From an uncultured Oscillospiraceae bacterium (GTDB lineage Bacteria; Bacillota; Clostridia; Oscillospirales; Oscillospiraceae), in contig CAYJLH010000004.1 of assembly GCA_964370925.1 (NCBI GenBank), positions 3,167-67,166 on the forward strand: a DNA stretch of 64,000 nt, in the 5' to 3' direction. Under the pieces are notes generated by a model. It did not search any database and was not told where the DNA came from. It saw only the letters and a list, made by a program, of their open reading frames with translations. Positions 4,585 to 43,732 of this stretch are shown piece by piece. Both the position numbers and the translations under genes were made by a program. Every line of letters starts with the position of its first letter. Position 1 is the stretch's first letter.

Positions 4585-4981
4585 AAAAAGTTTCGGGGGT
4601 TTCGTCCCCCGAGCGCCGAAGAGGCGGAAAGGGTGCTGAGAAAGCCACAAAAAAAGTTTGCAAACCCAGAAGCAGTTGCAAACGCACGAAAATATTCATA
4701 ATCCACGGCTATCGCCGCCTCAGCCCGCATCTACTCACTTGCAAAACTTAAAAAGAAAAGCGTATCTTTTTGCGAACTAAATCCCAAGTACAGGCTGACC
4801 TTGCGACTTGTCGCAAATGCGGGGGTATTCCAAAAGGGGGTCAGGCGACCCCCTTTGGTCGCTGGGGTGAGGATTTTTAAGGAGAGGGGAATCACGAAAT
4901 TCCCTCTCCTTAAACGTGTCTTTGCTTACTTTCTGCTCGTACAGAAAGTAAGTCATCGAAGATTATCCTCTACTAATATTT

Positions 4982-5009
4982 GTATACTTTTTGGTTTCAA
5001 AAAGTATAC
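4982..5009. repeat. right terminal 28-nt palindrome (12-bp stem, loop GTTT), exact reverse complement of 4557-4584
   Basis: GTATACTTTTTG GTTT CAAAAAGTATAC. Confidence 0.9.
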
Positions 5010-5050
5010 CCACGGAGTGAACTATTTCAATATCATAAAAAAGGATAAAT

Positions 5051-17319: not shown

Positions 17320-19125
17320 CTACAGAATTTTCTCAACTGAAAAGACTTCAAATGGTTCACTTTTTCCTTTTAAACTTAGAGTTCCAAGCGATTTGAATTC
17401 ACCTTGGCCTTCAAGTGCATCCGCAACCGCACGACTTACCAATATTTGTCCTGATTTGGAATTGCTTTCAAGTCTTGCCGCTGTGTTAACTGTATCGCCG
17501 ATAGCTGTGTAGTCCATTCTTTTCGGAGAACCTATGTTACCGACAACAGCAGAACCAAAGTGAACACCAATACCAAAGTCAACACTATGTCCAAATTCTG
17601 CCATCAGTTCTTCTCCAAGAGCTTTTGCACCCTCTCTCATGTCAACCGCAGCTTTGACTGCAAGGTAAATCGGGTTTTCCTGTGGAAGTGGCGCTCCCCA
17701 AAATGCCATGGTGCAGTCACCGATATACTTATCAAGTGTGCCTCGATTTTGGAAAATACAGCTACTTGTTAATGTCAAATATTTATTTACTATTTCAACA
17801 ACCTGTCTTGCGTCAAGTTTTTCTGACATAGTCGTAAAGCCTCGAATGTCGACAAATAAAACAGCAATATCTTTCAAATCTCCGCCAAGTTCAAGTGCTT
17901 GTGGGTCGCCTTTTAAAAGCTCGTTTGCAATTTCAGGCGCGAGGTATCTGTGCAATGTATTTGTAACTTTTCGCTTTTCAAATGTTGCTCTTGTGTAGTT
18001 TGCTCCTACCGAAATCACGTACGCAACCGTCAGTGCTAATGGCAAATACACGATATGTATTACATATCCCGAGTTAAACGCAAAGATACAAAATCCTACG
18101 CACGCTAGGACAGACGCAAACCAAACTGCTGTCGAAATGCGTATTCCTCGGTCATAGAACCAGAAAAACGCTAAAAATGTGATTAAAAATATCGCTATTG
18201 CCTGAGGAACTTTTGATACTTCTTCTTTTAGTTCTCCGCTCAAAAGTGCTGCGACTGCGTTAGCTTGGTATTCAACTCCGTACATTTTTACAGAGTGGTC
18301 TACAGCTGTAATGTAGTCGTCCTGCATCCCCTGTGAGTATGGCCCGATTAGTACAATTTTGTCTGCAAATAGCTGTGGGTCAAGCTCTTGATATACAAGG
18401 TCTGCAATAGAAAATCCATCGTCAAACGCACCTGGCGCAGATTGATAATTCAAATACCACATATGCCTTGGGTCTGTGGGTGGAACTGCAAAATCAGTCT
18501 CGCCCTGAGATTCCATATACATATTATATACAGCGCGGTGAAACGAGGGTATTTCTCTTCCATCGGGTAAGTCAATTTGCCAAATAGCATGGCGCAAAAT
18601 TCCATCAAAGTCTAACATACCGTTGATGTGACCTTGCTCTGTGACTTCTTTTAAAGCTTCGTACGGTTCTTCATACTGCAAAACTGCAAAAGTATCCAGA
18701 TAAAAAGAGCCGTCGTCGTTTACAACAAGTTCCTCGCCAAATGTTGCCGTTGAACCTGTAACGACATTTCCATATCTTCCCGATGCTTCAACCAAGGCGG
18801 CGTCGGCGTCGGGATATTCACTTTCACCTATATAAGTCGTATCAATTCCGATTACTGCCGGGCGATTTTCGGGATCTTGATTTAAATACTCAATCGCCTC
18901 CGCCATGATATCTCTAGGCCACGGCATAGGGCCGAATTCATCAACCGCCCTTTCATCCATACCAATAAGTATTATTTCGGATGGTGGGGTTTTCGGCTGT
19001 TGGTAGGCTACGTCGGCTAACACGTTAGCCTGTGTGAGCATGATATCAGTGGAATAGAGCACTGTGAAAAACAGTGCTCCAACCGTAGCTAGCAGAAAAC
19101 GCTGAATTTGCTTGCGTTTATTCAT
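17320..19125 (-). CDS. CHASE2-domain class III adenylate/guanylate cyclase
   Basis: N-terminal TM. Periplasmic-type CHASE2 pattern (IILIGMDERAVDEFGPMPWPRD). Three TMs. Cyclase core (VLFVDIRGFTTMSE, KYIGDCTMAFWG, IGDTVNTAARLES). Confidence 0.85.
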   Translation of the reverse strand: MNKRKQIQRFLLATVGALFFTVLYSTDIMLTQANVLADVAYQQPKTPPSEIILIGMDERAVDEFGPMPWPRDIMAEAIEYLNQDPENRPAVIGIDTTYIGESEYPDADAALVEASGRYGNVVTGSTATFGEELVVNDDGSFYLDTFAVLQYEEPYEALKEVTEQGHINGMLDFDGILRHAIWQIDLPDGREIPSFHRAVYNMYMESQGETDFAVPPTDPRHMWYLNYQSAPGAFDDGFSIADLVYQELDPQLFADKIVLIGPYSQGMQDDYITAVDHSVKMYGVEYQANAVAALLSGELKEEVSKVPQAIAIFLITFLAFFWFYDRGIRISTAVWFASVLACVGFCIFAFNSGYVIHIVYLPLALTVAYVISVGANYTRATFEKRKVTNTLHRYLAPEIANELLKGDPQALELGGDLKDIAVLFVDIRGFTTMSEKLDARQVVEIVNKYLTLTSSCIFQNRGTLDKYIGDCTMAFWGAPLPQENPIYLAVKAAVDMREGAKALGEELMAEFGHSVDFGIGVHFGSAVVGNIGSPKRMDYTAIGDTVNTAARLESNSKSGQILVSRAVADALEGQGEFKSLGTLSLKGKSEPFEVFSVEKIL

Positions 19126-30218: not shown

Positions 30219-30440
30219 TCAGCCTCCGGCAACTGGTGGAAATAATGCGACAATGTCGTCAGCTTTCACAGTGTCCTCAGGTTTTGAGTGCATACCATTA
30301 ATAAGACAAATTGCAAGGTCATCAACAGAGATATTAAGTTCTGCCAAAATATCAGAAATTGTATTCATTTTTTCAGGTGACATGAAGATTATTTTATCTC
30401 TGCCCTCTCTGAAAAATGCAAAAAGTCTCACTTCAATCAT
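30219..30440 (-). CDS. MoaD/ThiS-family ubiquitin-like sulfur-carrier protein
   Basis: 73 aa ending FPPVAGG (C-terminal Gly-Gly). Immediately downstream of AOR. Confidence 0.75.
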   Translation of the reverse strand: MIEVRLFAFFREGRDKIIFMSPEKMNTISDILAELNISVDDLAICLINGMHSKPEDTVKADDIVALFPPVAGG

Positions 30441-30462: not shown

Positions 30463-32268
30463 TTATTTATATTCGCTAAGTCCCAAACGCTCAAGAGTTG
30501 CCTCTGTTGGGAAAGCAGAATCCCAACCACGTACGTCATAATATTGTGGAAGAGTTACAGGTAGTTCACTAATCATACCCTTAGATGGGCCGTCTGGGAT
30601 AACTTCTTCAAGCAAACGCTTAGGAAGCTTATCGTCCTCGGGTTTCATGCCTGCGTGCTTATTAAATTGGCGCTCAATATTATAAATACGCTCACCAACT
30701 TCAAGCAATTGCTCCGGTGTGTAAGTTGTGCCTGTTGCAGCATTTAAAAGACCTGCATATTGTGGCGCACCCATAGCAAATGATGAGAACAAGCAAAGTC
30801 CCATGCTGTCAATAACAGCAGTTAGGTCTTGGAATATTTTACACCAAGTTGCTTTGCCCTCTGTTGCTGTGCGGTCTAGTTGCTCAGGAAGTCCTAGAAC
30901 CTCTGGGGAAATTAGATATCCACGAACATGGCAACCGCCACGGTTACTTGTTGCATAAGTTATGCCAATTCCTTGAATAGCACGTGGGTCATATGCTGGA
31001 AGCTCTTGCTTCTTAACGCTCATTGAAACTTCTGGATGACCATAATGCTCACAAAGTCTAAAGCTACCGTCAGCCATTAGTTTTGCAAGTGGAATTTTTC
31101 CTTCACCCATGCGCTTTGTCCACTCGATGATAGCTTCTGAACTACCCCAAGCTAGTGGAACACCCTCACATTCCTCTTCCTTGATTGCGCCGATTTGGTA
31201 AAGTTCCATAGCCGCAGCGATAGTACAAGGAGTTGAAATCGCATCGAGTCCGTATTCATTACACCAGTAGTTTGCCTCATTGATAGCAGTAAGGTCACTG
31301 ATATTACAGTTACCGCCGTATGCCCATAGTGGCTCATACTCAGGGCCACCAGTGACTTTTCCGTCGATTTCAATCATACGACCGCAACCCATAGGACAGC
31401 GATGGCAGAAACTTTGCTTTACAAGGTGTTTTTCTCTTAATGTTTCTCCCGATGTCTCGTCAGCCGGTGGGAAATATGCTTCTTGCCAGTTACGAGTTGG
31501 GAAAGCTCCTGTGTTATTGATAATGTTAACCAGAACAGCTGTACCATAAGTTGGTAGACCCTGACCGGTAACACCGTTTTCACGAATTAGTTTCATGCTC
31601 TCAGCTGTTACCGCTTTCAAAGCGTCAGCATCAGCTGGTTTAATAACTGTACGTGATGCACTTACTGTGATAGCCTTAAAATTCTTGCTACCCATAACCG
31701 CACCAACACCACTACGACCTGCCGCACGGTGCTTATCATTCATGATACATGCAAGCAGTGATAGATTTTCACCTGATGGGCCAATGTTCAAAACTGCACA
31801 CTTTGGATAAATTTCTTTCAATTTATCGTCAATGTGTTCGCTCATCATGCCCATATAGGGACTTGCGTCCAAAAGTTCAATCTTATCGTCCTCAATGTTG
31901 AGGTAAACAGGTTTTTCTGATTTTCCCTCGACAATAATTCCGTCATAACCTGCATATTTAAGTTTTGCACCCCAAACACCACCTGAGTTTGATGACGCAA
32001 TCATGCCTGTTAGCGGTGATTTTGTCACAACCATGTATCTACCGGCTGTTGGTGAAGCTGTTCCTGTCATTGGACCTGCTAGGAACACCAATTTGTTTTG
32101 TGGGCTTAGTGGTTCAACAGTTGCGACACCCTCATCCATCAAAATTTTTGTACCCAATCCACGACCGCCAATAAACTTTATAGCATCGTCTAAGTTTAGG
32201 TCTTCAACTTTGATAGCGCCCTCTGTTAGGTTAACACGAATAATTTTTCCGCAATATGATGTTGACAT
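30463..32268 (-). CDS. aor: aldehyde:ferredoxin oxidoreductase (tungstopterin enzyme family)
   Basis: AOR pattern (GKIIRVNLT...GGRGLG..., CHRCPMGCGR Fe-S motif, YATSNRGGCH). Start at ATG 32268 after GAGGAGGA. ORF-track extension to 32394 rejected. Confidence 0.93.
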   Translation of the reverse strand: MSTSYCGKIIRVNLTEGAIKVEDLNLDDAIKFIGGRGLGTKILMDEGVATVEPLSPQNKLVFLAGPMTGTASPTAGRYMVVTKSPLTGMIASSNSGGVWGAKLKYAGYDGIIVEGKSEKPVYLNIEDDKIELLDASPYMGMMSEHIDDKLKEIYPKCAVLNIGPSGENLSLLACIMNDKHRAAGRSGVGAVMGSKNFKAITVSASRTVIKPADADALKAVTAESMKLIRENGVTGQGLPTYGTAVLVNIINNTGAFPTRNWQEAYFPPADETSGETLREKHLVKQSFCHRCPMGCGRMIEIDGKVTGGPEYEPLWAYGGNCNISDLTAINEANYWCNEYGLDAISTPCTIAAAMELYQIGAIKEEECEGVPLAWGSSEAIIEWTKRMGEGKIPLAKLMADGSFRLCEHYGHPEVSMSVKKQELPAYDPRAIQGIGITYATSNRGGCHVRGYLISPEVLGLPEQLDRTATEGKATWCKIFQDLTAVIDSMGLCLFSSFAMGAPQYAGLLNAATGTTYTPEQLLEVGERIYNIERQFNKHAGMKPEDDKLPKRLLEEVIPDGPSKGMISELPVTLPQYYDVRGWDSAFPTEATLERLGLSEYK

Positions 32269-32313
32269 AAAAAAATCCTCCTCATTTTTGAATAATATTT
32301 CGATTTTACGTAA

Positions 32314-32390
32314 AAATAAGCACGCAAAACCAAAATCCTTTCCAAATACGGGAGGCATCACAATTACGGCGGATACCCTTAGGCTTATTT
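32314..32390 (-). ncRNA. candidate Moco/Wco (molybdenum/tungsten cofactor) riboswitch aptamer
   Basis: RNA: AAAUAAGC-CUAAGGGUAUCCGCCGUAAUUGUGAUGCCUCCCGUAUUUGGAAAGGAUUUUGGUUUUGCGU-GCUUAUUU. It has an 8-bp closing helix and an internal GGUAUC/GAUGCC helix. GCCUCCC and GGAAAGG strings match my memory of the Moco motif. Located in the AOR 5' UTR. Confidence 0.5.
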
Positions 32391-32421
32391 CCATATCAAA
32401 TAAGCTCGGATTTATAGTACT

Positions 32422-32450
32422 ATATTACCATAATTCAAATCGACTGTCAA
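32422..32450 (-). promoter_or_regulatory. promoter of the riboswitch-aor-moaD unit
   Basis: Minus strand: TTGACA (32450-32445), 17 nt, TAATAT (32427-32422). A second TTGACA lies 8 nt upstream. Confidence 0.55.
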
Positions 32451-32472
32451 TTATAGTCTGTCAAAAAAGTAT

Positions 32473-32512
32473 AAAAAGGACCATGGGAATGTTTAGTTAA
32501 CCTCCCATGGTC
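32473..32512 (-). terminator. terminator of the ECF operon (overlaps the stop of its last gene)
   Basis: GACCATGGGA-14 nt-TCCCATGGTC (10-bp stem) followed on the minus strand by CTTTTTATACTTTTTT. Confidence 0.7.
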
Positions 32513-33411
32513 ATATGATTTACCAAAAATCTCCTGTAAAATTCCTCTCTAATCTGAAAACTACCAATCATTTTAAGTTCCGACCTCGTAATAGGGATAT
32601 TAAACCTATTATCTGCGCCAATTTCTGTCACGCTAAGTCTTATATCTTTGAAAGCAAACAAGTCCTCCGCCAGCGAATAAACACCGTCCATTTCATCGAA
32701 AAATGAAAAAAGTTGCGCCCTTGAATATGCTAGATTTTTGACTTCAAGTTCCTCTTTCGTATCGCTGTTCCAAAAAAGTTCTTCTTTGACCTCAGCATAA
32801 AAAGCAGTAGCCCTTTCTAGCATATCTTCCTCAGTTCGTCTGCGTTTGCACATTTCAGAAATTTCAAGTTTGTACATTTCTTCGATACGTTTTCCGCAAA
32901 TTCCACGCATAGTAAAAGTGCGAATTAGCAAAGCACATGTCCGCTTTTTCCAGTCTGTAAAACTTGGATTATATGTGGCGGCAAATGCAATGATTTTTCC
33001 GCAATCTTCTGCGATATCGCCCTCCGAAATGTGGCTTTCGAAGTCAATTCCGACACAAATTTCGTCTTTTTCACTGAAAATATAGTTGCGTAAATTGTTA
33101 TCAACACGCAGTTTACCAGTCGCTTTGTGGTATTCTAGTAACCACTCCGCGAGTGCTATTGCGTGTTTTTCCTCCATATTTTCCACTAATTCGGAGTATA
33201 AAATTCCGTCGATATGCTTGTAACAGAGCATGTTTTCTGATGTCGAAACCAAGCTTGGAACTGCAACTTTTTTTGACTGTAAAAGGGCAATCATAGCCTT
33301 TTCACGTTCAAAATCCTCTGTATTTTTGAAAAGTTTTTTTACAATTTCCCCATCACCCCTTACAGTATTTCTTTTGGAAATAAAGGTGATTTCAGTGGAA
33401 TTTTCTTGCAT
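32497..33411 (-). CDS. hypothetical protein with protein-kinase/APH-like N-terminal fold (tentative)
   Basis: 304 aa. IVKKLF...EREKAMIALL...YKHIDG...RVDNNLRNYIF...VGIDFE resembles the Lys/Glu/catalytic-loop/DFG-like order of small kinases. TAATG overlap with the upstream gene. Confidence 0.4.
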   Translation of the reverse strand: MQENSTEITFISKRNTVRGDGEIVKKLFKNTEDFEREKAMIALLQSKKVAVPSLVSTSENMLCYKHIDGILYSELVENMEEKHAIALAEWLLEYHKATGKLRVDNNLRNYIFSEKDEICVGIDFESHISEGDIAEDCGKIIAFAATYNPSFTDWKKRTCALLIRTFTMRGICGKRIEEMYKLEISEMCKRRRTEEDMLERATAFYAEVKEELFWNSDTKEELEVKNLAYSRAQLFSFFDEMDGVYSLAEDLFAFKDIRLSVTEIGADNRFNIPITRSELKMIGSFQIREEFYRRFLVNHMTMGG

Positions 33412-34175
33412 TATTTCAAGCCTCCACGCTTAAAGCTAATCTCAATATCTCCGTCCTCAGTATAGCCGTTTAGCTCTTTAACTACAGACAAAACAGCATT
33501 TTTTAAGAGATTTTCGACAAACGGAACCATTTCAATGTTATGACCATCGACCTTTAGCTCAATACTTGGCTTTTTCAGTACGCAATCCTCGGCTGTCGCC
33601 TGTTTTTTCAAGATTTTACCTGTCAATTCCCTACATGTACAGCCACACGCATCACAACATTTCGGATCCATATTCGGCATAGGTGAAATCGCATGTTGCA
33701 TGACAAATTGAACGAGTTTTTCAGGCTCGTCAAGAGCATGAATTACGGGATAATCACCAAAACTTTTTCTCCCATCATTTGCCAAAACACCCGAAACTCC
33801 GACCACTCTTTCGTCAAGTCTCTCCAAAACTTCTTGCTCAGTGTGAGCCGTCAAAATTCTGGGGACATTGAGGTCCGTAACTCCCTCTAAAATCACATAA
33901 TCATGGTCATAGTGTCGCAAAATATCCTCAATCGGTAGCATGGTTTGGTACAGAACATCTGTCTCAAACATTCCTCTCGCTGTGACTAATTGCGAGCCTG
34001 CATTTTTATGACGGTTAGTATTTGAGTCCTCCACAGGGTCAATTTTAAAAAGTTCGAAGTGTATTTCTTTAACCGAGCCGACAGAAAACCCAAGCTTTCT
34101 AAGTCCGCTGATAATCGTCTCGCACACAGTTGTTTTTCCAGACTTTGTAATGCCATTAACTGCAATAACTTTCAT
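33411..34175 (-). CDS. MobB-like P-loop protein with Cys-rich C-terminal extension
   Basis: MKVIAVNGITKSGKTT...VGSVKEIHFE...NRHKNAGS resembles MobB. Extra domain with CCDACGCTC. Confidence 0.65.
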   Translation of the reverse strand: MKVIAVNGITKSGKTTVCETIISGLRKLGFSVGSVKEIHFELFKIDPVEDSNTNRHKNAGSQLVTARGMFETDVLYQTMLPIEDILRHYDHDYVILEGVTDLNVPRILTAHTEQEVLERLDERVVGVSGVLANDGRKSFGDYPVIHALDEPEKLVQFVMQHAISPMPNMDPKCCDACGCTCRELTGKILKKQATAEDCVLKKPSIELKVDGHNIEMVPFVENLLKNAVLSVVKELNGYTEDGDIEISFKRGGLK

Positions 34176-34187
34176 AATTTTTCCTCC

Positions 34188-34916
34188 CTATCCATAGTAA
34201 AAAATCATAGTCGTAGCCGAAATTGCGAGCAATAAAACTATGGCGACAACATCAATTCCAACCATTTTTACTTCTATAAAACTCGTGCGTTTTTTCATTG
34301 CACCAAAACCTCTAGCCTCCATTGCCATTGCCAAATCCTGTGATTTTATAACAGCGTCGGCAACAACAGGCGAGAGTAAATATCCGTATAATTTTATCCT
34401 TTTTCCGAAGGGAATTTTTTCAACTTCAATCCCTCTAAGTTGAATTGAAACCATTGCATCTGTAAAACTTTCCATAAAAAATGGAATAAATCTTAGCGTC
34501 AACATAATCATAAATGAAAAAGTATAAGGCACATGCAATTTTGAAAGCGAGGCTATAACCCGCCTGCTGTTTTCACTTTCCATGATTGCCGCTGAGGAAA
34601 TCAATGTAAAAAATCGAAGTCCCATGGTCACACCACGCAAAAATCCGTCGGTGTAAATAATTACGAATTCCCCGTATGAAAGCAGTGGTTCACCCGACCT
34701 TACAAATATAATTTGAATCACGCAAACTCCGATTAATATGTTTATAAAGCGTTTTAATTTGTTAAAAAGGAATTTGTAATTCGCCCCAAAAAGTAGCATT
34801 AACACAAAGGAAAACACGGCAATTCCGAGCAAATACAGCCAATCTTTGAACAAAATCGACATTGATGTCGTTAACAAAATCCCAAGCAGTTTTACCCGTG
34901 GGTCAGCATTTTTCAT
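34188..34916 (-). CDS. ecfT: ECF transporter transmembrane (T) component
   Basis: 242 aa, CbiQ/EcfT-like multi-TM protein with ARG motif (AMAMEARGFG). Follows two ECF-type ATPases. Confidence 0.85.
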   Translation of the reverse strand: MKNADPRVKLLGILLTTSMSILFKDWLYLLGIAVFSFVLMLLFGANYKFLFNKLKRFINILIGVCVIQIIFVRSGEPLLSYGEFVIIYTDGFLRGVTMGLRFFTLISSAAIMESENSRRVIASLSKLHVPYTFSFMIMLTLRFIPFFMESFTDAMVSIQLRGIEVEKIPFGKRIKLYGYLLSPVVADAVIKSQDLAMAMEARGFGAMKKRTSFIEVKMVGIDVVAIVLLLAISATTMIFYYG

Positions 34917-35574
34917 TTACAATTCCTCCTTTCGACACTTTGACAATGCGTGCCTCAGGAAAGCGAGAAAAAAGCTCCGTATCATGGGAAATCACAGCAA
35001 TTCCAAGTCCTGATTTCACAAGCTCATCCATAATCGTGTATAAGGTTTTGCGGTTTGCCACATCTAAGCCTGTTGTAGGCTCGTCAAGCATGAGATATTT
35101 GATGTCTTGCATAAGAATTGAGGCAAGCGCAAGCCTTTGTTTTTCGCCACGACTGAGACGATATGTGCTTCGTTTTGCCAGATGTTTTAGTGAAAATCTG
35201 TCCAAAAGTTCTATGGCTTTTTTTGCGATTTCATCGGGGTTTTGGTCTAAAACCGAACCTATAAATGTCATCTCATCCCAGACTGTTGCCGTAAAAATCT
35301 GCTTTGACGGCTCTTGAAAAAGGTAGCCTACATATTTTCCCATTTGCCCAAGAGTGAAGTTTGTTGCGTCATTTCCAAAAACCGTATGCCCCATGCCCTC
35401 ACATTTTAAAATCCCTGCACAGAGCTTCAAAAGAGTTGATTTTCCGCTTCCGTTATTCCCCTCAACAAGACAAATTTCGCCTGTTTTCAAGGTGAATTCT
35501 TCGGCAGTAAATCTAAAAGCGTTTCTTGGATACTGAAAGGAAATATTTTTAAGTGTGATTGCATGTTCACTCAT
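34903..35574 (-). CDS. ecfA: ECF transporter ATPase component
   Basis: Walker A GNNGSGKST, signature LSRGEKQRLALA, Walker B LMLDEPT. Confidence 0.9.
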   Translation of the reverse strand: MSEHAITLKNISFQYPRNAFRFTAEEFTLKTGEICLVEGNNGSGKSTLLKLCAGILKCEGMGHTVFGNDATNFTLGQMGKYVGYLFQEPSKQIFTATVWDEMTFIGSVLDQNPDEIAKKAIELLDRFSLKHLAKRSTYRLSRGEKQRLALASILMQDIKYLMLDEPTTGLDVANRKTLYTIMDELVKSGLGIAVISHDTELFSRFPEARIVKVSKGGIVNEKC

Positions 35575-36263
35575 AAACTCTCTCCTCCGCTCCCCTTTTG
35601 TGCCACAAGTTTTCCATCAATAAATGCATAAATTTTATCAGCAATAAACAGATTTTCCTCGTCGTGTTCGACCATCAAAATTGCTTTCCCACGCTTTTTC
35701 AGCTCGACTATACAATCCATAATCCTTGCTGTTGCCTCCCTGTCGAGCTGGCTTAAAGCCTCGTCGAACAATAGCACCTGTGGGTCTAGCGTTAAAACTG
35801 CCCCCAAGGCAACAAGCTGTTTTTGGCCACCCGAAAGACGTGTAGGACTGTGAAATCTATAGTCCTCCATGCCGACAATTTTTAGAGCTTCATCAATTCT
35901 TTTTGCGATTTCTTCCCTCGGTAAACCTATGTTTTCAGGACCAAAAGCGAGTTCATCCTCAACCGTAGGTGCAAAAAGTTGTGCATCAGGATTTTGGAAA
36001 ACTATGCCGACTTGTCGCACAACTTCATGCAACGGCATTTCGGCTACAGCCTTACCCGAAAGTAGTGCTTCGCCCTTTAATTCGCCCTCTATACTCCTCG
36101 GAATTAGCCCCGCTAATATCAGACAAAGTGTTGATTTTCCGCAACCTGATGGCCCTGTAATCGCAACACATTCACCCGAATTTATAGATAGATTTGCACC
36201 GCTTATAAGTGGATTTTGCCCTAGGTAGGAGAAGAAAATCTCCCTTGCTTCAAGCTGTATCAT
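35571..36263 (-). CDS. ecfA: ECF transporter ATPase component (second)
   Basis: Walker A GPSGCGKST, LSGGQKQLVALG, LLFDEAL. Start at ATG 36263 (ATGA overlap with the upstream stop). Confidence 0.9.
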   Translation of the reverse strand: MIQLEAREIFFSYLGQNPLISGANLSINSGECVAITGPSGCGKSTLCLILAGLIPRSIEGELKGEALLSGKAVAEMPLHEVVRQVGIVFQNPDAQLFAPTVEDELAFGPENIGLPREEIAKRIDEALKIVGMEDYRFHSPTRLSGGQKQLVALGAVLTLDPQVLLFDEALSQLDREATARIMDCIVELKKRGKAILMVEHDEENLFIADKIYAFIDGKLVAQKGSGGESL

Positions 36264-36793
36264 TGTATCACAACTTCCTGTACAAATTTGCACCAACGCT
36301 GTGAAAATTCTGAGCTTTTTATAATCATTAGGTATGGCCCCATGCCACCCTCTGATTTTGGTTTTAACGGTTCATCATCCATCGCAAGGCAGATATAAAC
36401 ATTATCCTCCGTCATGATTTCCTCTTTTGTCAGCGCTGAGGTATAACCGTCAAGTGAGCGCACTTCTATAGTTTCACTCGAAATTTCCATATCCGCAAAT
36501 TCGAAAACATCCTTTAATTCAACGCCCGAAAAACTAACATCAGTCGGGTCTGTATTGCTCGTATCCATAACCGCAGAAACGGGTACAGGGTTAAGTGACA
36601 ACATGTCATCCATAGTGATTTGAACCGTTGTTTCACCTGATTTTAGCTCAAAAACCGCATTCATTTCAAGCTCTTTTTTGTAGCTGACATCGCCGGCATT
36701 TAGCCTTGAAAAAATTGTAATCATAATAACAAGCACTGCAATGATTACAAGCAATATTTTTGCCTGATTATTAACATTTTTCTTGTATTCCAT
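36260..36793 (-). CDS. membrane-anchored exported protein with one YedY/sulfite-oxidase-like molybdopterin-binding-type module
   Basis: N-terminal TM. FSGVELKDVF..IEVRSLDGYTSALTKEEI..YICLAMDDEPL..GPYLMIIKSSEFSQRWCKFVQEVVI. Confidence 0.5.
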   Translation of the reverse strand: MEYKKNVNNQAKILLVIIAVLVIMITIFSRLNAGDVSYKKELEMNAVFELKSGETTVQITMDDMLSLNPVPVSAVMDTSNTDPTDVSFSGVELKDVFEFADMEISSETIEVRSLDGYTSALTKEEIMTEDNVYICLAMDDEPLKPKSEGGMGPYLMIIKSSEFSQRWCKFVQEVVIQ

Positions 36794-36805
36794 AGTTTTA
36801 CCCCT

Positions 36806-38287
36806 CTATTTTATCGTGAAAAATGGAATACACATATCTTCGTACTTAAACTCGCCGTGGTCTCCCAATTTTTCACCAATACTTGTGTCATGTTGTCCGT
36901 GGTCAGAAATTATATAAGTAGTCCCCGAAAAAGCGGAAAGCATTTCGTTGACATAGCCCTCGATTTCATCGAGTTTTTTTATTGCTTCGTCTGAATACGT
37001 CCCATAAGTGTGGGAAATATCGTCATAGCCGTGGAAGTGTACAAAGACTAATTCGTGTTCCTCTTCTATCGTTTTCATGGCAGAAGCAAAAACTTCATCG
37101 TCAGTCGAGCCGTCAGCATTTTCATCTGCGTTTAAAATCGGCGAAACACTTGAATTCACAAGTTTTGAATATCCCTCAACCAAAACACCATCGACATTTT
37201 CAAACATGTCAGGCACTAAAAGTTCACGCTCTGAGCGCTCAGTTACGCCGTTTATGTCCGGTGTTTCCCCAGTTATCATCGCCGCAAGTGCCACATTTGA
37301 TATACTGGGCATAACTGTACGCATTTTTTCCACTGTATGCTCTTTCGAAAGTTCTAAGCCGTGCATTTCGTATGCTTTATAGCCCAGCCCGTCGATATGA
37401 ATTACCAAAACATCTCCCTCAGTGTTTTCAACTATGCCTTTCAGGTCTGTTATAGATGCCTCGGGTGCATCTTCCCAAACTCCAACTATGTCATGAATTC
37501 GGGTTTTTCCGTCGGCATCAACGTAGTCGGCAGTGTTTCCTCTCCAGTCGAAATAACCGTCAAGAGATACCATTTGCTCTGACCCATCACCGAAATAAGC
37601 AAGCGCTTCCCCACCATTTGAGTCAATATAGCTCGAAATCGGAACCATAGGTCGGCGAGTATAGGCGCTAACACCAAGTCCGTTTTTTTCTGCATTTCCC
37701 TCGACGACAGACATTATAACACTATCTTCAAGGAACAAATTTCCGTACGAAATTTCATAACCGCTCTCACCCGAAATTGTGCGCAAACACGCCTGTTCAG
37801 GGTGCATAATTTCTGCAACTAGTACAATATAGTCGATGTTTCTGATGCCTGCCTGTGGCGGAAAATTGGGAGCACTTATGGAAAATCCCGCAGTTTCATT
37901 CCAATAAAGCAAAATACTTTCATCAATATCATCTTTTGAGATTTCAGCCATAACACCATCCGGTGAATGAAAAATCACTTTAATTTCACTACCCAAAGGA
38001 ACAGCTTCATTTAGCACATTTATAAGCGGTATTGCCGGAAAATTTTCTCCATCTTTTTCAACTGTTGTGGTTTCATAATCCGAAAAGTCCGTCAGCGTAA
38101 TTTCGGTTTCGACATCGCCTGTTATGGTAATAGGGCTTCGCTCTCCCGACAAAAATGAGATTTCAGTCGGTGCAACTTCTTCTGTTTGTGGTGATATCTG
38201 AGGTGAGTTACTCGCCTGTTCCTGACATCCCGAGAATATAAAAAGCGTCGCAAGCGATAGAACTGTTAAGCTAATTTTCTTTTTCAC
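36806..38287 (-). CDS. lipoprotein: YedY-like module plus alkaline-phosphatase-superfamily (NPP-type phosphodiesterase/pyrophosphatase) domain
   Basis: GTG 38287, 6 nt after GGAGG. Lipobox IFSGC. FPAIPLINVLNEA..VIFHSPDGVMAEISKDDI module. AP-type motifs VIHIDGLGY, MPSISNVALAAMITGETP, FVHFHGYDDISH, ISDHGQHD. Confidence 0.6.
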   Translation of the reverse strand: MKKKISLTVLSLATLFIFSGCQEQASNSPQISPQTEEVAPTEISFLSGERSPITITGDVETEITLTDFSDYETTTVEKDGENFPAIPLINVLNEAVPLGSEIKVIFHSPDGVMAEISKDDIDESILLYWNETAGFSISAPNFPPQAGIRNIDYIVLVAEIMHPEQACLRTISGESGYEISYGNLFLEDSVIMSVVEGNAEKNGLGVSAYTRRPMVPISSYIDSNGGEALAYFGDGSEQMVSLDGYFDWRGNTADYVDADGKTRIHDIVGVWEDAPEASITDLKGIVENTEGDVLVIHIDGLGYKAYEMHGLELSKEHTVEKMRTVMPSISNVALAAMITGETPDINGVTERSERELLVPDMFENVDGVLVEGYSKLVNSSVSPILNADENADGSTDDEVFASAMKTIEEEHELVFVHFHGYDDISHTYGTYSDEAIKKLDEIEGYVNEMLSAFSGTTYIISDHGQHDTSIGEKLGDHGEFKYEDMCIPFFTIK

Positions 38288-38918
38288 TGGTTTCCTCCAA
38301 CTCTTTGGGCATAGGTACTGAAAAACCATTGCCTTTTTGTTTTTCATCTTTTGTGATTTGTCTGCCTTGCAAAATCCCGAGGCGTCTTACGTTAGAGCCG
38401 ATTGAATGTGCAACCAAACCACCCAAACCGCCAGATAGTGCAGATGCAGTTAGTGATAGCATCAATGGAACAAAAGATAGGTTGAAAATCGCAAGATTCA
38501 CCGAAAAGCTACCTGCCATGTTGGCAACAACTCCGCCAAGAAAACAGCAAATCGCACAATCTGCCCTGTGCCTCATAATCAAATATAAAAGGTCAATTGC
38601 AATTCCGGGCATGGTGTAAGTTAGAATACTCGCCGCACCATGAGAGCCAAGCGCGCCTGTTAGTGTAACAACCGCACCTTGTATCAAAGCAACGACAAAA
38701 GCCGTTCCCCATTTTCCTGTAATGCTCTCCCCCAACACAAGGAAAGCCATATAAAAACCGCCTGCAACCACACCGCCGGGTATAAAAAGTGGCCCTGTGA
38801 TGATTTGTGCAAGCGGAACAATAATCGCCTTAATTGCTATGCCCATAGCAGCAACCATGGACATAATGCAGTAATCTGCCAGTGTGAAATATGGTCTTTT
38901 TATTTTCAAGAGTAACAC
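38271..38918 (-). CDS. ECF transporter substrate-specific (S) component-like membrane protein, unknown specificity
   Basis: ~6 hydrophobic helices, Gly/Ala-rich (PLFIPGGVVAGGFYMAFLV). Located inside the ECF operon. The true start is possibly TTG 38909. Confidence 0.55.
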   Translation of the reverse strand: MLLLKIKRPYFTLADYCIMSMVAAMGIAIKAIIVPLAQIITGPLFIPGGVVAGGFYMAFLVLGESITGKWGTAFVVALIQGAVVTLTGALGSHGAASILTYTMPGIAIDLLYLIMRHRADCAICCFLGGVVANMAGSFSVNLAIFNLSFVPLMLSLTASALSGGLGGLVAHSIGSNVRRLGILQGRQITKDEKQKGNGFSVPMPKELEETSEKEN

Positions 38919-38929
38919 TCCTTTTCACT

Positions 38930-38961
38930 ATTAGGGCAGATGCATCTGCACCTACCCTAAT
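38930..38961 (-). other. intercistronic stem-loop between the lipoprotein and S-component genes
   Basis: ATTAGGG...CCCTAAT enclosing the palindrome CAGATGCATCTG. No U-run. Confidence 0.35.
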
Positions 38962-38994
38962 AAAATAACTCGTCATCTTGTAGTATTACAAGAA

Positions 38995-40575
38995 TTAATC
39001 AATAACAATTTGAACTAGATATTTCGCCCAGTTATTTGCTGTGAAGTTTTCGCTGACTGCAAACCAAACTTTGCCGTCGCCATCGCTTTCGATATATTCG
39101 CCATCTTGATATAGTGCAAACATTGATTGTGGGTCGTTTAGCATGTCGGGTGTTAGTTTGATTTCATATCCGTCAGAAGCGATAACTGTTATTGTGCTTT
39201 CTGGGTCAGCACCAACAAAGTTTGCAATTTCTGACCAGTGAACACCTTTGTAAACACCGACAACTGTTTCACCAAAAGAGTTTGTGCGTGAGATTTCATG
39301 CTCTAGTTGTGGTAGTGCCATAAAATCTTCTTCTGTGATAGCTTTTGCTTCGCCACCAACTGTGATAGTTAAAAGTGCGCCTTCAACAGCTTCTGTTTCA
39401 ACTTCTTCGCCTGCTTCTTCTGACACTGTTTCACCTGAAACCAATTCGCCTGATGGAACAATTGAAGCTAGGTATTTGACTTTTCCGCCGCCTTTAGCAT
39501 CGCCAAAGTCATAACCTTCGAATTCAGCTCTGATATAGCCCTCTTCTTCGTCTGGATAGATTTTTCCGAATTCAATAGCGTCACCAGGAATAACTGTCTC
39601 ATATCCGTCGCTTGCGATGAATTTATACTCGCTGTAACCGTTAATTCCCAGTGTATCAAGTAGTGTTGCAACATCTGTTTCTGTTCCGAAATAAATAGCT
39701 GTTGAACCAGCTTTAACTAGGTCAAGTTGCTTAACACGCATGCCTAGGTTTAGTGTTTCTGAGAAATATTGTGGTGCATTTGTTTCCATATCTTCGCTAC
39801 CCTCAAGTTTTGAAACATAGCAAGTGAAGAATACATCAGCATTTTCTGTTTTTTCGTGTCCATCACGAGCAATTAAAGTAAATACTTCTGTTTCATTTTC
39901 AGGAAGGAATGCATCAAAATATGCTTGAAGTGAGTATGATTCAACCATTGTTCCGTCATAGTCTAAAGTTTCAGGTGTTAAAGTTGTCGCATTTTCAAAG
40001 AAAAATTGAACTTCTGCAACCATTTCTTCGCTTGCAGCCGCAGCTTCACCTGCACCAATTTCAATCATTGATAAATCTTTAACCCAGAACATAGCGCGTT
40101 TTTCAGGAACTGCACTTCTAGGTGTTTCAAGGACTTCACCGTTAAATGTAAGAACGATGTAAGCGCCTGTTTCTGCATATTCGTCGGCTGGTACGTTCAT
40201 AACATAACCGTCAGCCGCTGTGAAAGTCAAGCCACCGACATCTGCCAAGTTGATTCCATTTTCTTCAAGAACTTTTGCAATTGAAATGCCCTCAAAAACG
40301 ATTTCTGAGCTTTCGCCTTTTGAGTCTAGTGATGTTGTTTCAATTGTTTCAAGCTCCATAGCTTTCATGTCTGCACCGGTAAGTACGATGTCAACACCCT
40401 CACCTTTGATTGCAATTTCATAATCGTCAGCAAGTCCGCCCTCAGTTGATGCCTCGGGGCTAACTTCAGCACTTGCCACGGGGCTTTCTTCCGGAGCATC
40501 TGTTTCACTTGAACATCCGGCAAACACCAGCATAAGCAAAACAAGCGCAAGGGATAATAGTGTATGCTTTTTCAT
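38995..40575 (-). CDS. lipoprotein with three YedY/sulfite-oxidase-like molybdopterin-binding-type modules
   Basis: Lipobox VFAGC. Modules FEGISIAKVLEENGI..TFTAADGYVMNVPADEY..LTFNGEVL..MFWVKDLSMIEI; LLDTLGINGYSEYKFIASDGYETVIPGDAIE; YKGVHWSEIANFVG..VIASDGYEIKLTPDML..ALYQDGEYI..NNWAKYLVQIVI. Confidence 0.55.
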   Translation of the reverse strand: MKKHTLLSLALVLLMLVFAGCSSETDAPEESPVASAEVSPEASTEGGLADDYEIAIKGEGVDIVLTGADMKAMELETIETTSLDSKGESSEIVFEGISIAKVLEENGINLADVGGLTFTAADGYVMNVPADEYAETGAYIVLTFNGEVLETPRSAVPEKRAMFWVKDLSMIEIGAGEAAAASEEMVAEVQFFFENATTLTPETLDYDGTMVESYSLQAYFDAFLPENETEVFTLIARDGHEKTENADVFFTCYVSKLEGSEDMETNAPQYFSETLNLGMRVKQLDLVKAGSTAIYFGTETDVATLLDTLGINGYSEYKFIASDGYETVIPGDAIEFGKIYPDEEEGYIRAEFEGYDFGDAKGGGKVKYLASIVPSGELVSGETVSEEAGEEVETEAVEGALLTITVGGEAKAITEEDFMALPQLEHEISRTNSFGETVVGVYKGVHWSEIANFVGADPESTITVIASDGYEIKLTPDMLNDPQSMFALYQDGEYIESDGDGKVWFAVSENFTANNWAKYLVQIVID

Positions 40576-40702: not shown

Positions 40703-41359
40703 TCAAAGCAGTATTTCAAACTCATTTTTTGAAAATTTTATTATGCCCTCTTTCTGCATTTTCGATAGTTCATTTGAAAGCGCACTTCTATCCGCACATA
40801 GAAAACTCGCGAGTTGTTCACGATTTAACTCTATAGTAAACTTTTTAGCGCCTCTCCTTGAATAGTTGAAATATGCCATAATCTTTTCCCTCAGAGTTTT
40901 CTTAGAAATAATATCAATTTTTTGGTTTAGATACAGACTTTTTCTGGCTATAACCTTTAGCATATTGGAAATTAGTGTCTGATGAAACCTACATGATGAA
41001 CTACATGTCGTAACAATTTTCCTATAGTCTAAAAACAAAACCCGACTTTTCGCCCCTGCGACTATCGAAACAGGGCTTTGAAAAATATCCGCACACGCGA
41101 AAACCTCCAAAAAGATATCCCCGTCAGATATCTCGGCAATTATTGTTTCATTTCCGTTTTCATCAGACTTCATAACTCTAACTTCACCCGAAATTACTAT
41201 TCCTACAAAATCTATTTTGTCACCTAAGTGTAAAATATACTCATTTTTGGCGTAGCTCTTTTCAAATGCGGATATGCAATTAAACATAGCATTAAAATCT
41301 TCTCTTGTGATATTATCGAATATAGGATGTGCACATACTAAATCAAAATAATTTTTCAT
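40703..41359 (-). CDS. Crp/Fnr-family transcriptional regulator (HcpR-like by context)
   Basis: cNMP-binding-like N-terminus and C-terminal HTH (REQLASFLCADRSALSNELSKMQKEGII). Start at ATG 41359 after AAAGGGG. Divergent from hcp. Confidence 0.8.
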   Translation of the reverse strand: MKNYFDLVCAHPIFDNITREDFNAMFNCISAFEKSYAKNEYILHLGDKIDFVGIVISGEVRVMKSDENGNETIIAEISDGDIFLEVFACADIFQSPVSIVAGAKSRVLFLDYRKIVTTCSSSCRFHQTLISNMLKVIARKSLYLNQKIDIISKKTLREKIMAYFNYSRRGAKKFTIELNREQLASFLCADRSALSNELSKMQKEGIIKFSKNEFEILL

Positions 41360-41373
41360 AATACCCCTTTTTC

Positions 41374-41398
41374 GTTGTGTAGACAACAGATTTGTTGT
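41374..41398. promoter_or_regulatory. overlapping palindromes in the crp/hcp intergenic region (candidate operator)
   Basis: GTTGT-gtag-ACAAC (41374-41387) and ACAACA-gatt-TGTTGT (41383-41398), just upstream of TATAAT 41405-41410. Confidence 0.35.
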
Positions 41399-41445: not shown

Positions 41446-42117
41446 ATGAGCAAAAAAGTTATAAAGATAGATGCCGACAAATGCATAGGCTGTGGTCTAT
41501 GTGCAGCGACATGTAAGCAAAGTGCAATCGAAATGATTGACGGAAAAGCAGTTGTAACATCAGAAGATTATTGCGACGGAATTGGAAATTGTCTTCGCGT
41601 ATGCCCTGTAAACGCAATTAGTTTTTCAGATAAAGATGTAAGCAAATCAGAGGACAGACCCAAACATTCAACTTGCCCCGGTAGCAGAGCAAAAATGATT
41701 TCATCTGACGAAAATGTTGCAGATGTAAAAATAAAATCCGCCCTACGTCAATGGCCAGTGCAAATTAAATTAATTCCCGAAAGTGCGCCTTATTTTGAAA
41801 ATGCAGACTTGCTTATCGCCGCAGATTGCTCCGCATTTGCATATGCAAATTTTCATGCGGAATTTATCAAAGATAAGATTACTATAATCGGATGTCCAAA
41901 ACTCGATAGTGTTGACTACACGAATAAATTAAGTTCAATCATCAATAATAACAGTATCAAGTCAGTTACAGTCGTGAGAATGGAAGTTCCATGCTGTGGT
42001 GGTATCGAAAACGCCGCAGTTAACGCAGTGAAAAACAGTGGAAAAAAATTACCGCTTAATGTAGTTACTATTACAATTAACGGTGAAATTTTAAAAAATA
42101 AGAAAGTTGAGGATTAG
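41446..42117 (+). CDS. 4Fe-4S dicluster ferredoxin-domain protein
   Basis: CIGCGLCAATC and CDGIGNCLRVCP motifs. Co-oriented with and adjacent to hcp. Confidence 0.75.
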   Translation: MSKKVIKIDADKCIGCGLCAATCKQSAIEMIDGKAVVTSEDYCDGIGNCLRVCPVNAISFSDKDVSKSEDRPKHSTCPGSRAKMISSDENVADVKIKSALRQWPVQIKLIPESAPYFENADLLIAADCSAFAYANFHAEFIKDKITIIGCPKLDSVDYTNKLSSIINNNSIKSVTVVRMEVPCCGGIENAAVNAVKNSGKKLPLNVVTITINGEILKNKKVED

Positions 42118-42121
42118 TCAA

Positions 42122-43732
42122 ATGAGTGAAATGTTCTGTTTCCAATGTCAGCAGACCGCACACAACGTCGCTTGCGAAGGCAAGAGCGGTGTTTGCGGAA
42201 AAAAATCCAACAATGCACAGCTTCAAGACGAATTGACAAGTGCATTAATCGGGCTTGCACGTTGCCTAGACGGTGATACAAAACCCACAGAGGACACAGC
42301 AAGAATTGTAATCGAGGGGCTTTTTACCACCATTACGAACGTAAACTTCAACGATGACACAGTGCAGAAAATGATTGAGCTTGTCCACAATGAAAAGTCT
42401 GTAATCGTTCCCGGTTGTGCCGGATGCACCTCTGCATGTAACAGAAACGATGATTATCACATGGACTATCTTTGGAAAGAACACGAAGATATTCGCTCGC
42501 TGAAATCATTGATTTTGTTCGGTATTCGTGGTATGTCCGCTTATGCACATCATGCGATGGTTTTAGGCTACGAAAGCGAAGAAATCAACCAATTTTTGTA
42601 CAAGGCGCTGTTTTATATCGGCTCTGATTGTGGCGCGAATGAACTTCTTCCAATCGTACTTGAAGTCGGAAAAGTGAACTTACAGTGCATGGAACTTCTG
42701 GACAAAGCCAACACCGAAAGTTACGGCACACCAGTGCCCACAAGCGTTTCACTAACTATTGAAAAAGGCCCATTTATCGTCATCAGCGGACATGATTTGC
42801 ACGATCTTAAACTTCTTTTAGAACAAACAAAAGACAAGGGCATAAACATCTATACACACAGCGAAATGCTACCAGCTCACGCCTATCCAAAACTCAAAGA
42901 GTACAAGCATTTAAAAGGAAATTTCGGCACTGCGTGGCAAAGTCAGCAGAGCGAATTCCACAACATTCCCGCACCGATTTTGTTCACCACTAACTGCCTA
43001 ATGCCAGTTCGTGAGAGCTATAAAGACAGAGTTTTCACAACGTCTGTTGTGTCATATCCAGAGCTTGTGCACATTGGAAACGACAAAGATTTTTCGGCTG
43101 TAATCGCAAAGGCCTTAGAGTGTGGCGGTTACGACGAGGACAAGCAAATGACAGGCATCAACGGCGGTAAAACTGTCATGACAGGCTTTGGTCACGGTAC
43201 TGTTTTATCTGTTGCAGATAAGGTCATTGACGCCGTTAAGGGTGGAAAAATCAAACACTTTTTCCTAGTCGGCGGTTGTGATGGCGCTCAATCTGGCAGA
43301 AACTATTACACTGAGTTTGTAAAACAAAGCCCTAAGGACAGCATTATTTTAACTCTCGCTTGTGGTAAATATCGTTTCAATGATTTAGACCTTGGAGATA
43401 TAGAGGGCTTGCCTCGTATCATGGACATGGGACAATGTAACGACGCTTATAGTGCAATTAAAGTTGCCGTTGCTTTGTCTGAGGCTTTTGGATGCACAGT
43501 CAATGAATTACCTCTATCCATGGTGCTTTCTTGGTACGAACAAAAAGCGGTTGCAATACTTCTAACACTTCTTTACCTCGGAATTAAAGACATCTATTTA
43601 GGGCCAACTCTACCAGCTTTTGTGTCAAAAAATGTGCTTGATATTTTGGTCAAAAACTATAATATTTCGCCAATTAGCACTCCTGAAGAGGACTTAAAAA
43701 AAATTCTTGGTGAAGTTGCTGTCGCAAACTAA
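42122..43732 (+). CDS. hcp: hydroxylamine reductase / hybrid-cluster protein
   Basis: N-terminal CFQCQQT...C...C cluster motif, ~536 aa, conserved GGCDG and MGQCNDAYS segments. ATG 42122 is 8 nt after GAGGA. Confidence 0.93.
   Translation: MSEMFCFQCQQTAHNVACEGKSGVCGKKSNNAQLQDELTSALIGLARCLDGDTKPTEDTARIVIEGLFTTITNVNFNDDTVQKMIELVHNEKSVIVPGCAGCTSACNRNDDYHMDYLWKEHEDIRSLKSLILFGIRGMSAYAHHAMVLGYESEEINQFLYKALFYIGSDCGANELLPIVLEVGKVNLQCMELLDKANTESYGTPVPTSVSLTIEKGPFIVISGHDLHDLKLLLEQTKDKGINIYTHSEMLPAHAYPKLKEYKHLKGNFGTAWQSQQSEFHNIPAPILFTTNCLMPVRESYKDRVFTTSVVSYPELVHIGNDKDFSAVIAKALECGGYDEDKQMTGINGGKTVMTGFGHGTVLSVADKVIDAVKGGKIKHFFLVGGCDGAQSGRNYYTEFVKQSPKDSIILTLACGKYRFNDLDLGDIEGLPRIMDMGQCNDAYSAIKVAVALSEAFGCTVNELPLSMVLSWYEQKAVAILLTLLYLGIKDIYLGPTLPAFVSKNVLDILVKNYNISPISTPEEDLKKILGEVAVAN

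Follow-up and report, generated by a model that had tools for sequence, protein, structure and literature searches.

The Moco RNA motif was defined by Regulski et al. in 2008. P3 is absent from 58 of its 176 members, and this absence correlates with tungsten-cofactor genes. A GNRA tetraloop on P4 and its receptor in P2 are almost universal in that set, and a few members lack the receptor. The E. coli moaA element exerts OFF control, with the ribosome binding site (RBS) inside P1. Direct binding of the cofactor is unproven even for the E. coli RNA, because the ligand is unstable (PMC2408646).

A 2024 study of E. limosum describes five P3-less RF01055 riboswitches, termed 'Tuco', one of which precedes the AOR-family operon WOR1. 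Under tungsten limitation the WOR1 mRNA was unchanged, the activity was <10%, and control at the RBS was predicted. The focA and fetABC1 leaders are of the terminator type and show OFF behavior (PMC11725836). P3-less Tuco riboswitches in front of AOR-family operons are therefore an already published kind. The element described here, from an uncultured Oscillospiraceae bacterium, is only modestly novel, in its inferred ON polarity and its compact architecture.

Identification and Architecture of the Aptamer

The whole window, by which we mean the complete 64,000-nt stretch of DNA analysed here, was scanned against Rfam. Two matches lie above the gathering score, RF01055 and a T-box. The RF01055 (Moco/Tuco aptamer) match covers 32423-32319 on the minus strand, with 45.8 bits against a gathering score of 36 (E 9.6e-8), and is full-length (model positions 1-135). 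The Moco/Wco-type riboswitch predicted by the initial annotation is thus confirmed. Against our custom covariance model R1, the window aptamer scores 99 bits. A valyl-tRNA synthetase gene (320-2941) follows the T-box leader (RF00230, 51-273, plus strand, 143.9 bits).

A sequence check found every leader motif listed by the initial annotation in its place on the minus strand, where all leader features described below are located. The aptamer is a compact, P3-lacking form (32319..32423) with a core bounded by P1 (32413-32333). P1, assigned from the Rfam alignment and covariation, pairs AAAUCC (32413-32408) with GGAUUU (32338-32333); four of its 6 bp are A-U. The P2 hairpin (32383..32405) has an 8-bp stem of GCUUAUUU (32405-32398) and AAAUAAGC (32390-32383) and the 7-nt loop GAUAUGG. 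P4 (32353..32378) pairs GGGUAUC (32378-32372) with GAUGCCU (32359-32353), thus including the GGUAUC/GAUGCC helix, and carries the 12-nt loop CGCCGUAAUUGU. P5 is formed by CC (32352-51) and GG (32343-42) within CCUCCCGUAUUUGG, as given by the Rfam alignment. The conserved 3' core (32333..32352) comprises P5, the junction GUAUUU, AAA, and the P1 3' strand GGAUUU, and consists of invariant columns. The segments GCCUCCC (32356-32350) and GGAAAGG (32343-32337) are both present. The core elements CCGAG, GCCUCCC, and UUUGGAAAGG all occur in the window and are invariant or nearly so in an alignment of 16 sequences. The Rfam alignment has gaps at the P3 columns, and P2 and P4 are separated by CCUAA only; P3 is absent, as had been proposed.

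Neither a GNRA tetraloop on P4 nor a receptor bulge in P2 is found in the window, where the P4 loop is CGCCGUAAUUGU and P2 is plain. This is not disqualifying for RF01055, since a few members in the set of Regulski et al. also lack the receptor. The window shares P1, P2, P4, P5, and the lack of P3 with the P3-less Tuco elements (E. limosum WOR1, PMC11725836, and the 58 of PMC2408646), and differs from them in having a 12-nt P4 loop instead of GNRA and a P2 without the receptor bulge. It shares the core CCGAG, GCCUCCC, and UUUGGAAAGG, the helices P1, P2, P4, and P5, and (by prediction for the window) control of translation initiation with E. coli moaA, which differs in having P3 and the tetraloop-receptor contact. 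The leader element is a real, ordinary member of RF01055 in its P3-less form, in front of an AOR gene.

Promoter, Start Codon, and Gene Context

The downstream gene (30463..32268, minus strand) encodes a 601-aa protein of the AOR family with the Pfam domains AFOR_N (3e-75) and AFOR_C (9e-139), which bears out the description of this region as an AOR leader. A MoaD/ThiS-like small protein of 73 aa (30219..30440, minus strand) is co-transcribed with AOR and is the last gene of the regulated unit. The next gene, MatE, is preceded by an 11/12 promoter match. The order AOR-ThiS(-ThiF) is found in relatives. WOR1 of E. limosum is similar in that an AOR-family tungstoenzyme is accompanied by a MoaD-like gene, a terminator is lacking, and control is predicted to act at the RBS (PMC11725836). 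E. coli moaA differs in serving cofactor biosynthesis, whereas the gene here is a cofactor-using enzyme.

The leader has its own promoter, as initially suggested. It consists of TTGACA (32450-32445), a 17-nt spacer ending in TGg, and TAATAT (32427-32422), spanning 32422..32450. The promoter scan gives a sigma-70-type match of 10/12 with an extended -10 (TG present). The predicted transcription start is at about 32415, a few nt 5' of P1. The same TTGACA-17-TAATAT promoter is found at the same distance in the three closest relatives (L001-L003; loci of the comparative set carry the prefix L).

The public protein P0001 has 643 aa and starts at ATG 32394, which lies within the P2 loop of the aptamer. 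Judged from the orthologue starts at MSTSY and the GGAGGA Shine-Dalgarno (SD) sequence, the true AOR start is ATG 32268 (601 aa). Over-extended gene calls of 609, 616, and 652 aa were also seen in several relatives.

A long operon lies directly upstream (32497-40575, minus strand). It encodes two proteins with molybdopterin-binding oxidoreductase domains (526 and 177 aa), an ECF-type transporter (a PF09819 S-like component, two ATPases, and a CbiQ T component), a PglZ/phosphodiesterase-like protein, a MobB/FeS protein, and a 304-aa protein without a family match. This operon may be a pterin or Mo/W-related uptake or processing cluster. No riboswitch for it was found in the window. A terminator-like hairpin read from the sequence marks its end (32463..32510, minus strand), with a stem of CCAUGGGA (32510-32503) and UCCCAUGG (32488-32481) and a U-rich tail behind it; its loop contains the stop codon of the 304-aa ORF (32497). 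As this loop is longer than 8 nt, the hairpin was missed by the terminator scan.

Further upstream, a Crp/Fnr-type regulator (40703-41386, minus strand) is divergent from a ferredoxin-like gene (41446-42117) and a hybrid-cluster protein (Prismane, 42107-43732), which fits an anaerobic lifestyle of the host. Another ORF of 601 aa (17320-19125) was considered as an AOR paralogue and rejected, as it encodes a CHASE2 adenylate/guanylate cyclase.

Conservation and Covariation

AOR relatives were collected from genomes (28 loci), metagenomes (17 loci, none closer than 75%), and by a protein route (12 loci). The aptamer is directly upstream of AOR in 35 other loci, as detected with RF01055 or the custom model R1. 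Twenty of these 35 are outside the seed of the custom model, including 5 from Mailhella/Desulfovibrionaceae and all 12 protein-route loci. Of the helix cells in the 16-sequence alignment, 93.6% are paired under the Rfam assignment, compared to 33-53% when the partners are slid. Double changes occur in 15 of the 23 pairs of this alignment, and 0 of 500 shuffles reach the observed values. Compensatory changes are seen in all 8 pairs of P2; P1 shows double changes in 4 of 6 pairs, with 91% of cells paired. From the pairing, the covariation, and the shuffles we conclude that the aptamer and its fold are secure.

Five Mailhella/Desulfovibrionaceae MAGs (L006, L008, L019, L029, and L040) have a low-GC version (0.32-0.39) of the aptamer about 25-140 nt 5' of AOR, and their AOR is about 75% identical to the Firmicute genes. 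This suggests horizontal transfer. Their aptamers are below the Rfam gathering score and are detected by the custom model alone. Some AOR loci have larger additional RF01055 matches on the opposite strand (L011:2034-2205, L021:1969-2099 and 4885-5011, all on the minus strand, and L038), which probably belong to divergently transcribed Moco-regulated neighbors. A Clostridiales-1 sRNA (RF01699) lies about 1.5 kb 5' of the AOR riboswitch in L002 (148-301, 100 bits) and L003 (626-761, 55 bits).

The Duplicated Strands

The initial annotation had proposed that AAAUAAGC swaps between two copies of GCUUAUUU, with the upstream pairing giving a small alternative hairpin and the downstream pairing closing the aptamer and acting as a terminator. 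The three 8-mers all exist: a sequence check places the GCUUAUUU copies at 32405-32398 and 32321-32314, and there are indeed 61 nt between AAAUAAGC and the downstream ('third') copy. Local shuffling of the 64-nt downstream region gave an 8-nt Watson-Crick complement of the P2 3' strand in 2/300 cases, so that such a match is uncommon. The 8-mer GCUUAUUU itself occurs 7 times in the window versus 4.8 expected, which is not unusual.

The rest of the model does not hold. The supposed small hairpin is P2 of the aptamer, a constitutive helix with full covariation, and the aptamer is closed not by the third copy but by P1 (AAAUCC/GGAUUU). The helix of AAAUAAGC with the third copy is worth -3.1 kcal/mol, compared to -7.1 for P2. 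In the ensemble this helix has a probability of about 0, whereas P2 reaches 0.975. When it is forced, the best structure has -26.3 instead of -45.9 kcal/mol, a cost of about 20. As for covariation in AOR leaders, it is present throughout P2; a complement to the P2 3' strand beyond chance is found downstream in 0 of the 35 related AOR leaders, and the three closest relatives (86-87% AOR identity) have complement runs of only 3. Between the third copy and the RBS there are 32 nt rather than about 45, and the copy is followed by UU and then ACG rather than by a U-rich tail. It is mostly located in the loop (32320-32313) of the hairpin H described below, and is probably an incidental part of it.

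The terminator scan made no call between 32100 and 32700, and candidate terminators after the third copy or after H were rejected on this basis. In the absence of an intrinsic terminator, P1 cannot double as a terminator stem, contrary to the initial suggestion. Strand swapping between the copies has next to no chance of being correct, and the structural and mechanistic model built on it (duplicated strands, P1 as terminator) is largely refuted and, we conclude, wrong.

Predicted Expression Platform

The free minimum free energy (MFE) fold of the leader is -45.3 kcal/mol (z = -4.3). It consists of P2, a hairpin H, and a long-range helix between the aptamer core and the SD region. H (32297..32336) has 16 bp, AUUUUGGUUUUGCGUG with UACGUAAAAUCGAAAU, and about -17 kcal/mol. 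Its base overlaps the P1 3' strand, as do equivalent hairpins in L001-L004 and L020, and takes AUUU from that strand in the free MFE fold. The pre-SD and SD region (32276..32292) consists of UUCAAAAAUGA (32292-32282) and GGAGGA (32281-32276), and pairs with 32354-32338 in the free fold. In this core:SD helix, CCUCC-CGU-UUUGGA (32354-32338) faces UUCAAA-AUG-GGAGG (32292-32277), with -15.7 kcal/mol. The candidate anti-SD is thus the conserved 3' core plus CC at 32354-53. The SD is paired to the core with a probability of 0.90 in the free ensemble. The probability that it is unpaired is 0.02 in the free ensemble versus 0.68 with the aptamer enforced. In prefix folding, P1 has a probability of 0.91 on completion of the aptamer and of 0.92 at 32303, falling to 0 after GGAGG is transcribed. 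In nearest-neighbor terms the aptamer fold is less stable than the sequestered one by about 12 kcal/mol, so that switching would need kinetic trapping or a large tertiary or ligand energy.

Based on these foldings, we propose that a P3-less RF01055 element with its own promoter controls the AOR and MoaD-like operon as a translational ON switch, with a probability of about 0.6 in our estimate. The aptamer would be the most stable fold as long as only the aptamer is transcribed. As H and the SD region emerge, the ligand-free RNA would refold, with the H 3' strand capturing AUUU of the P1 3' strand. The core CCUCC-CGU-UUUGGA would then pair with UUCAAA-AUG-GGAGG, burying the SD and blocking translation. 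The invariant CCUCCC-GUAUUUGGA would be the aptamer strand that pairs with the pre-SD and GGAGG when ligand is absent. A pterin cofactor would lock the aptamer within a window of about 50 nt before the SD is made, keeping CCUCCC and P1 engaged. With the aptamer locked the SD would stay open, and AOR would be translated only when cofactor is available.

The add adenine riboswitch of Vibrio vulnificus is a translational ON switch in which the 3' half of the ligand-free aptamer pairs with the SD region, and the ligand frees the SD. The predicted behavior of the window is alike, with a 3' part of the aptamer pairing to the SD without ligand and releasing it on binding. The two differ in that aptamer family and ligand are unrelated, and in that the anti-SD of the window is the invariant pocket CCUCCC, which is complementary to any Gram-positive SD. 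The window also appears to differ from the Tuco elements (PMC11725836) in that its SD partner is apparently the aptamer core and not a separate sequestor hairpin.

The generality of this complementarity is one argument against the ON reading, as the core:SD pairing is generic for any GGAGG site. Chimeric leaders with the SD regions of 45 unrelated GGAGG genes are still sequestered by the core (median P 0.98). The core:SD duplex of the window is average among controls (3/14, and 38% of 45). For an extension beyond CCUCC:GGAGG, the window has p = 0.30, and combining 17 related, non-independent leaders by Fisher's method gives p = 0.028. We therefore rejected the pairing as evidence of selection, as it is generic in controls and the extension test is weak, and kept it as a physical mechanism. 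In these models, it is a built-in physical property of the aptamer beside a Gram-positive SD and is not demonstrably selected.

H itself could act at another level. With the following AUAUUAUUC and an open P1, it might terminate transcription weakly, cause pausing, or be a site of processing, giving transcriptional or RNA-stability control. It is strong (-17 kcal/mol) and competes with P1. In L002 and L003 the hairpin equivalent to H is directly followed by UUUU, and termination signals for E. coli moaA were seen in RNA-seq (TaRTLEt preprint). Against this, no terminator is called in the window, just 4 of the 8 nt in the tail of H are U, a U tract is missing behind the hairpin in L001 and L004, and most of H (12 bp) stays in the aptamer-enforced fold, so that it is not strongly ligand-dependent. 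We regard such control as quite improbable here, and favor translational ON control.

Orthologous Leaders and Switch Polarity

The same opening of the SD is predicted in L001-5, L011, L046-49, L055, and L057, where its unpaired probability rises from 0.00-0.05 in the free RNA to 0.19-0.75 with the aptamer enforced. The Erysipelotrichaceae leaders behave differently. Their free RNA forms H (the P1 3' strand with UGUGCGGCCC) and a canonical terminator. With the aptamer enforced, an 8-bp antiterminator of UGCGGCCC and GGGUCGCA is formed, the latter taken from the terminator. This arrangement reads as a transcriptional ON switch in the foldings. L023 shows the same fold behavior. In the group of L009, L052, and L054, the free fold has the SD region paired to an extended P1 3' strand. 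Together, three other platform designs in orthologous leaders appear to point to ON, as in the window. The ON reading is favored because the SD opens with the aptamer enforced and because these other designs share the polarity.

The Erysipelotrichaceae set (L013-L015, L027, L031, L032, and L036) has about 70 nt from aptamer to AOR and retains a GAAA tetraloop on P4. Its four strands form a relay of P1, H, antiterminator, and terminator (CAAGGGxCG..CCCUUG-U6-7).

A second argument against ON comes from precedent, as the experimentally characterized Moco-family switches behave as OFF switches. In the corresponding model for the window, the same aptamer would let the cofactor repress AOR, through a sequestor/anti-sequestor pair that our foldings did not capture or through Rho. 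E. coli moaA is OFF (PMC2408646), and focA and fetABC1 of E. limosum go up under tungsten limitation. For WOR1 an RBS sequestor with an anti-sequestor overlapping an aptamer helix is described, conventionally read as repression by the ligand; the study gives no direction for WOR1, whereas we infer ON for the window (PMC11725836).

The predicted folds of the window speak against this model. In moaA the RBS is in the P1 3' strand, so that the ligand represses (PMC2408646), whereas the SD of the window is 52 nt beyond P1 and outside it. The SD of the window finds no strong pairing partner when the aptamer is enforced (unpaired probability 0.68). The H 3' strand was considered as an SD sequestor and rejected because its complementarity is negligible (-2.6 kcal/mol, versus -15.7 for core:SD); an anti-sequestor/sequestor OFF design is therefore not visible. 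The terminator-type orthologous leaders gain the antiterminator with the aptamer enforced and not without it. Repressing a cofactor-dependent enzyme when its cofactor is present would also be physiologically odd. We consider an OFF switch unlikely.

It is also conceivable that the element is constitutively folded or vestigial, with no ligand-dependent switching here. The Rfam score exceeds the gathering score only moderately, the Mailhella leaders showed no switch or alternative fold in the same foldings, and the controls gave no selection signature on the window's own SD region. At the same time, the core nucleotides are intact and compensatory changes maintain the helices throughout 36 leaders. 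With its 6 bp, of which 4 are A-U, P1 is weak and has a competing hairpin alongside, as expected of a switch. A loss of switching is thus very unlikely in our view, and a translational ON switch remains the preferred reading.

Ligand and Metal Specificity

The tungsten form of the pterin cofactor is the most likely ligand, judging from the AOR family of the gene and the lack of P3 in the aptamer. The P3-less form is found before AOR in the window and 33 relatives. P3 is present in L049 (354-474; GCCGGGG..CCCCGGC; AOR 79% identity) and L056 (316-441; GCCGA..UCGGC; 76%). These two leaders run counter to the reported rule that Moco RNAs with P3 accompany Mo genes and those without it W genes. With P3 in these two leaders before AOR orthologues, the absence of P3 alone is a shaky indicator of the metal. 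Of the P3-less tungsten sensor first suggested, the missing P3 stands and the rule that links P3 to the metal is weakened. No tungstate transporter gene was found within the window.

A Candidate Loop-Loop Contact

In the compact clade, which lacks the tetraloop-receptor contact, the P2 loop (32391-32397 in the window) ends in ..UAUGG and the P4 loop (32360-32371) contains CCGUA... The two loops could pair over 5 bp in the window (UAUGG:CCGUA), over 7 bp in L005 and L047, and over 9-10 bp with a bulge in the Mailhella leaders. Loop complementarity was noted in L005, L006, L008, and L047. With variable register, cognate loop pairs give -4.43 compared to -3.37 kcal/mol for non-cognate pairs (permutation p 0.0016, Fisher 1e-5). 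With fixed register the covariation is not significant (69.9% vs 67.6%; 122 of 500 shuffles as high). Since only GG:CC is invariant, the contact remains a lead, and a P2-P4 kissing loop in place of the tetraloop-receptor is suggestive.

The RF01055 scores of the compact clade are near the gathering threshold, and the Mailhella copies are below it. One may speculate that this clade is a compact RF01055 subclass, marginal to Rfam, without P3 and the tetraloop-receptor, with a P2-loop:P4-loop contact instead, with CCUCCC doubling as anti-SD, and activated by the cofactor (ON). We put this forward tentatively, and it is more doubtful than the ON reading of the window itself.

Implications

The leader analysis corrects the start codon of AOR, and suggests that AOR and the MoaD-like gene form a cofactor-regulated unit. 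The P3-bearing aptamers before AOR call for caution with the rule that a P3-less element means tungsten. If a compact ON subclass exists, its polarity would be opposite to that of every characterized Moco-family riboswitch. The four platform designs in front of AOR orthologues are all predicted to be ON; if so, bacteria would use this family to make tungstoenzymes only when their cofactor is present. The idea of ON polarity would thus bear on the use of tungsten by gut anaerobes.
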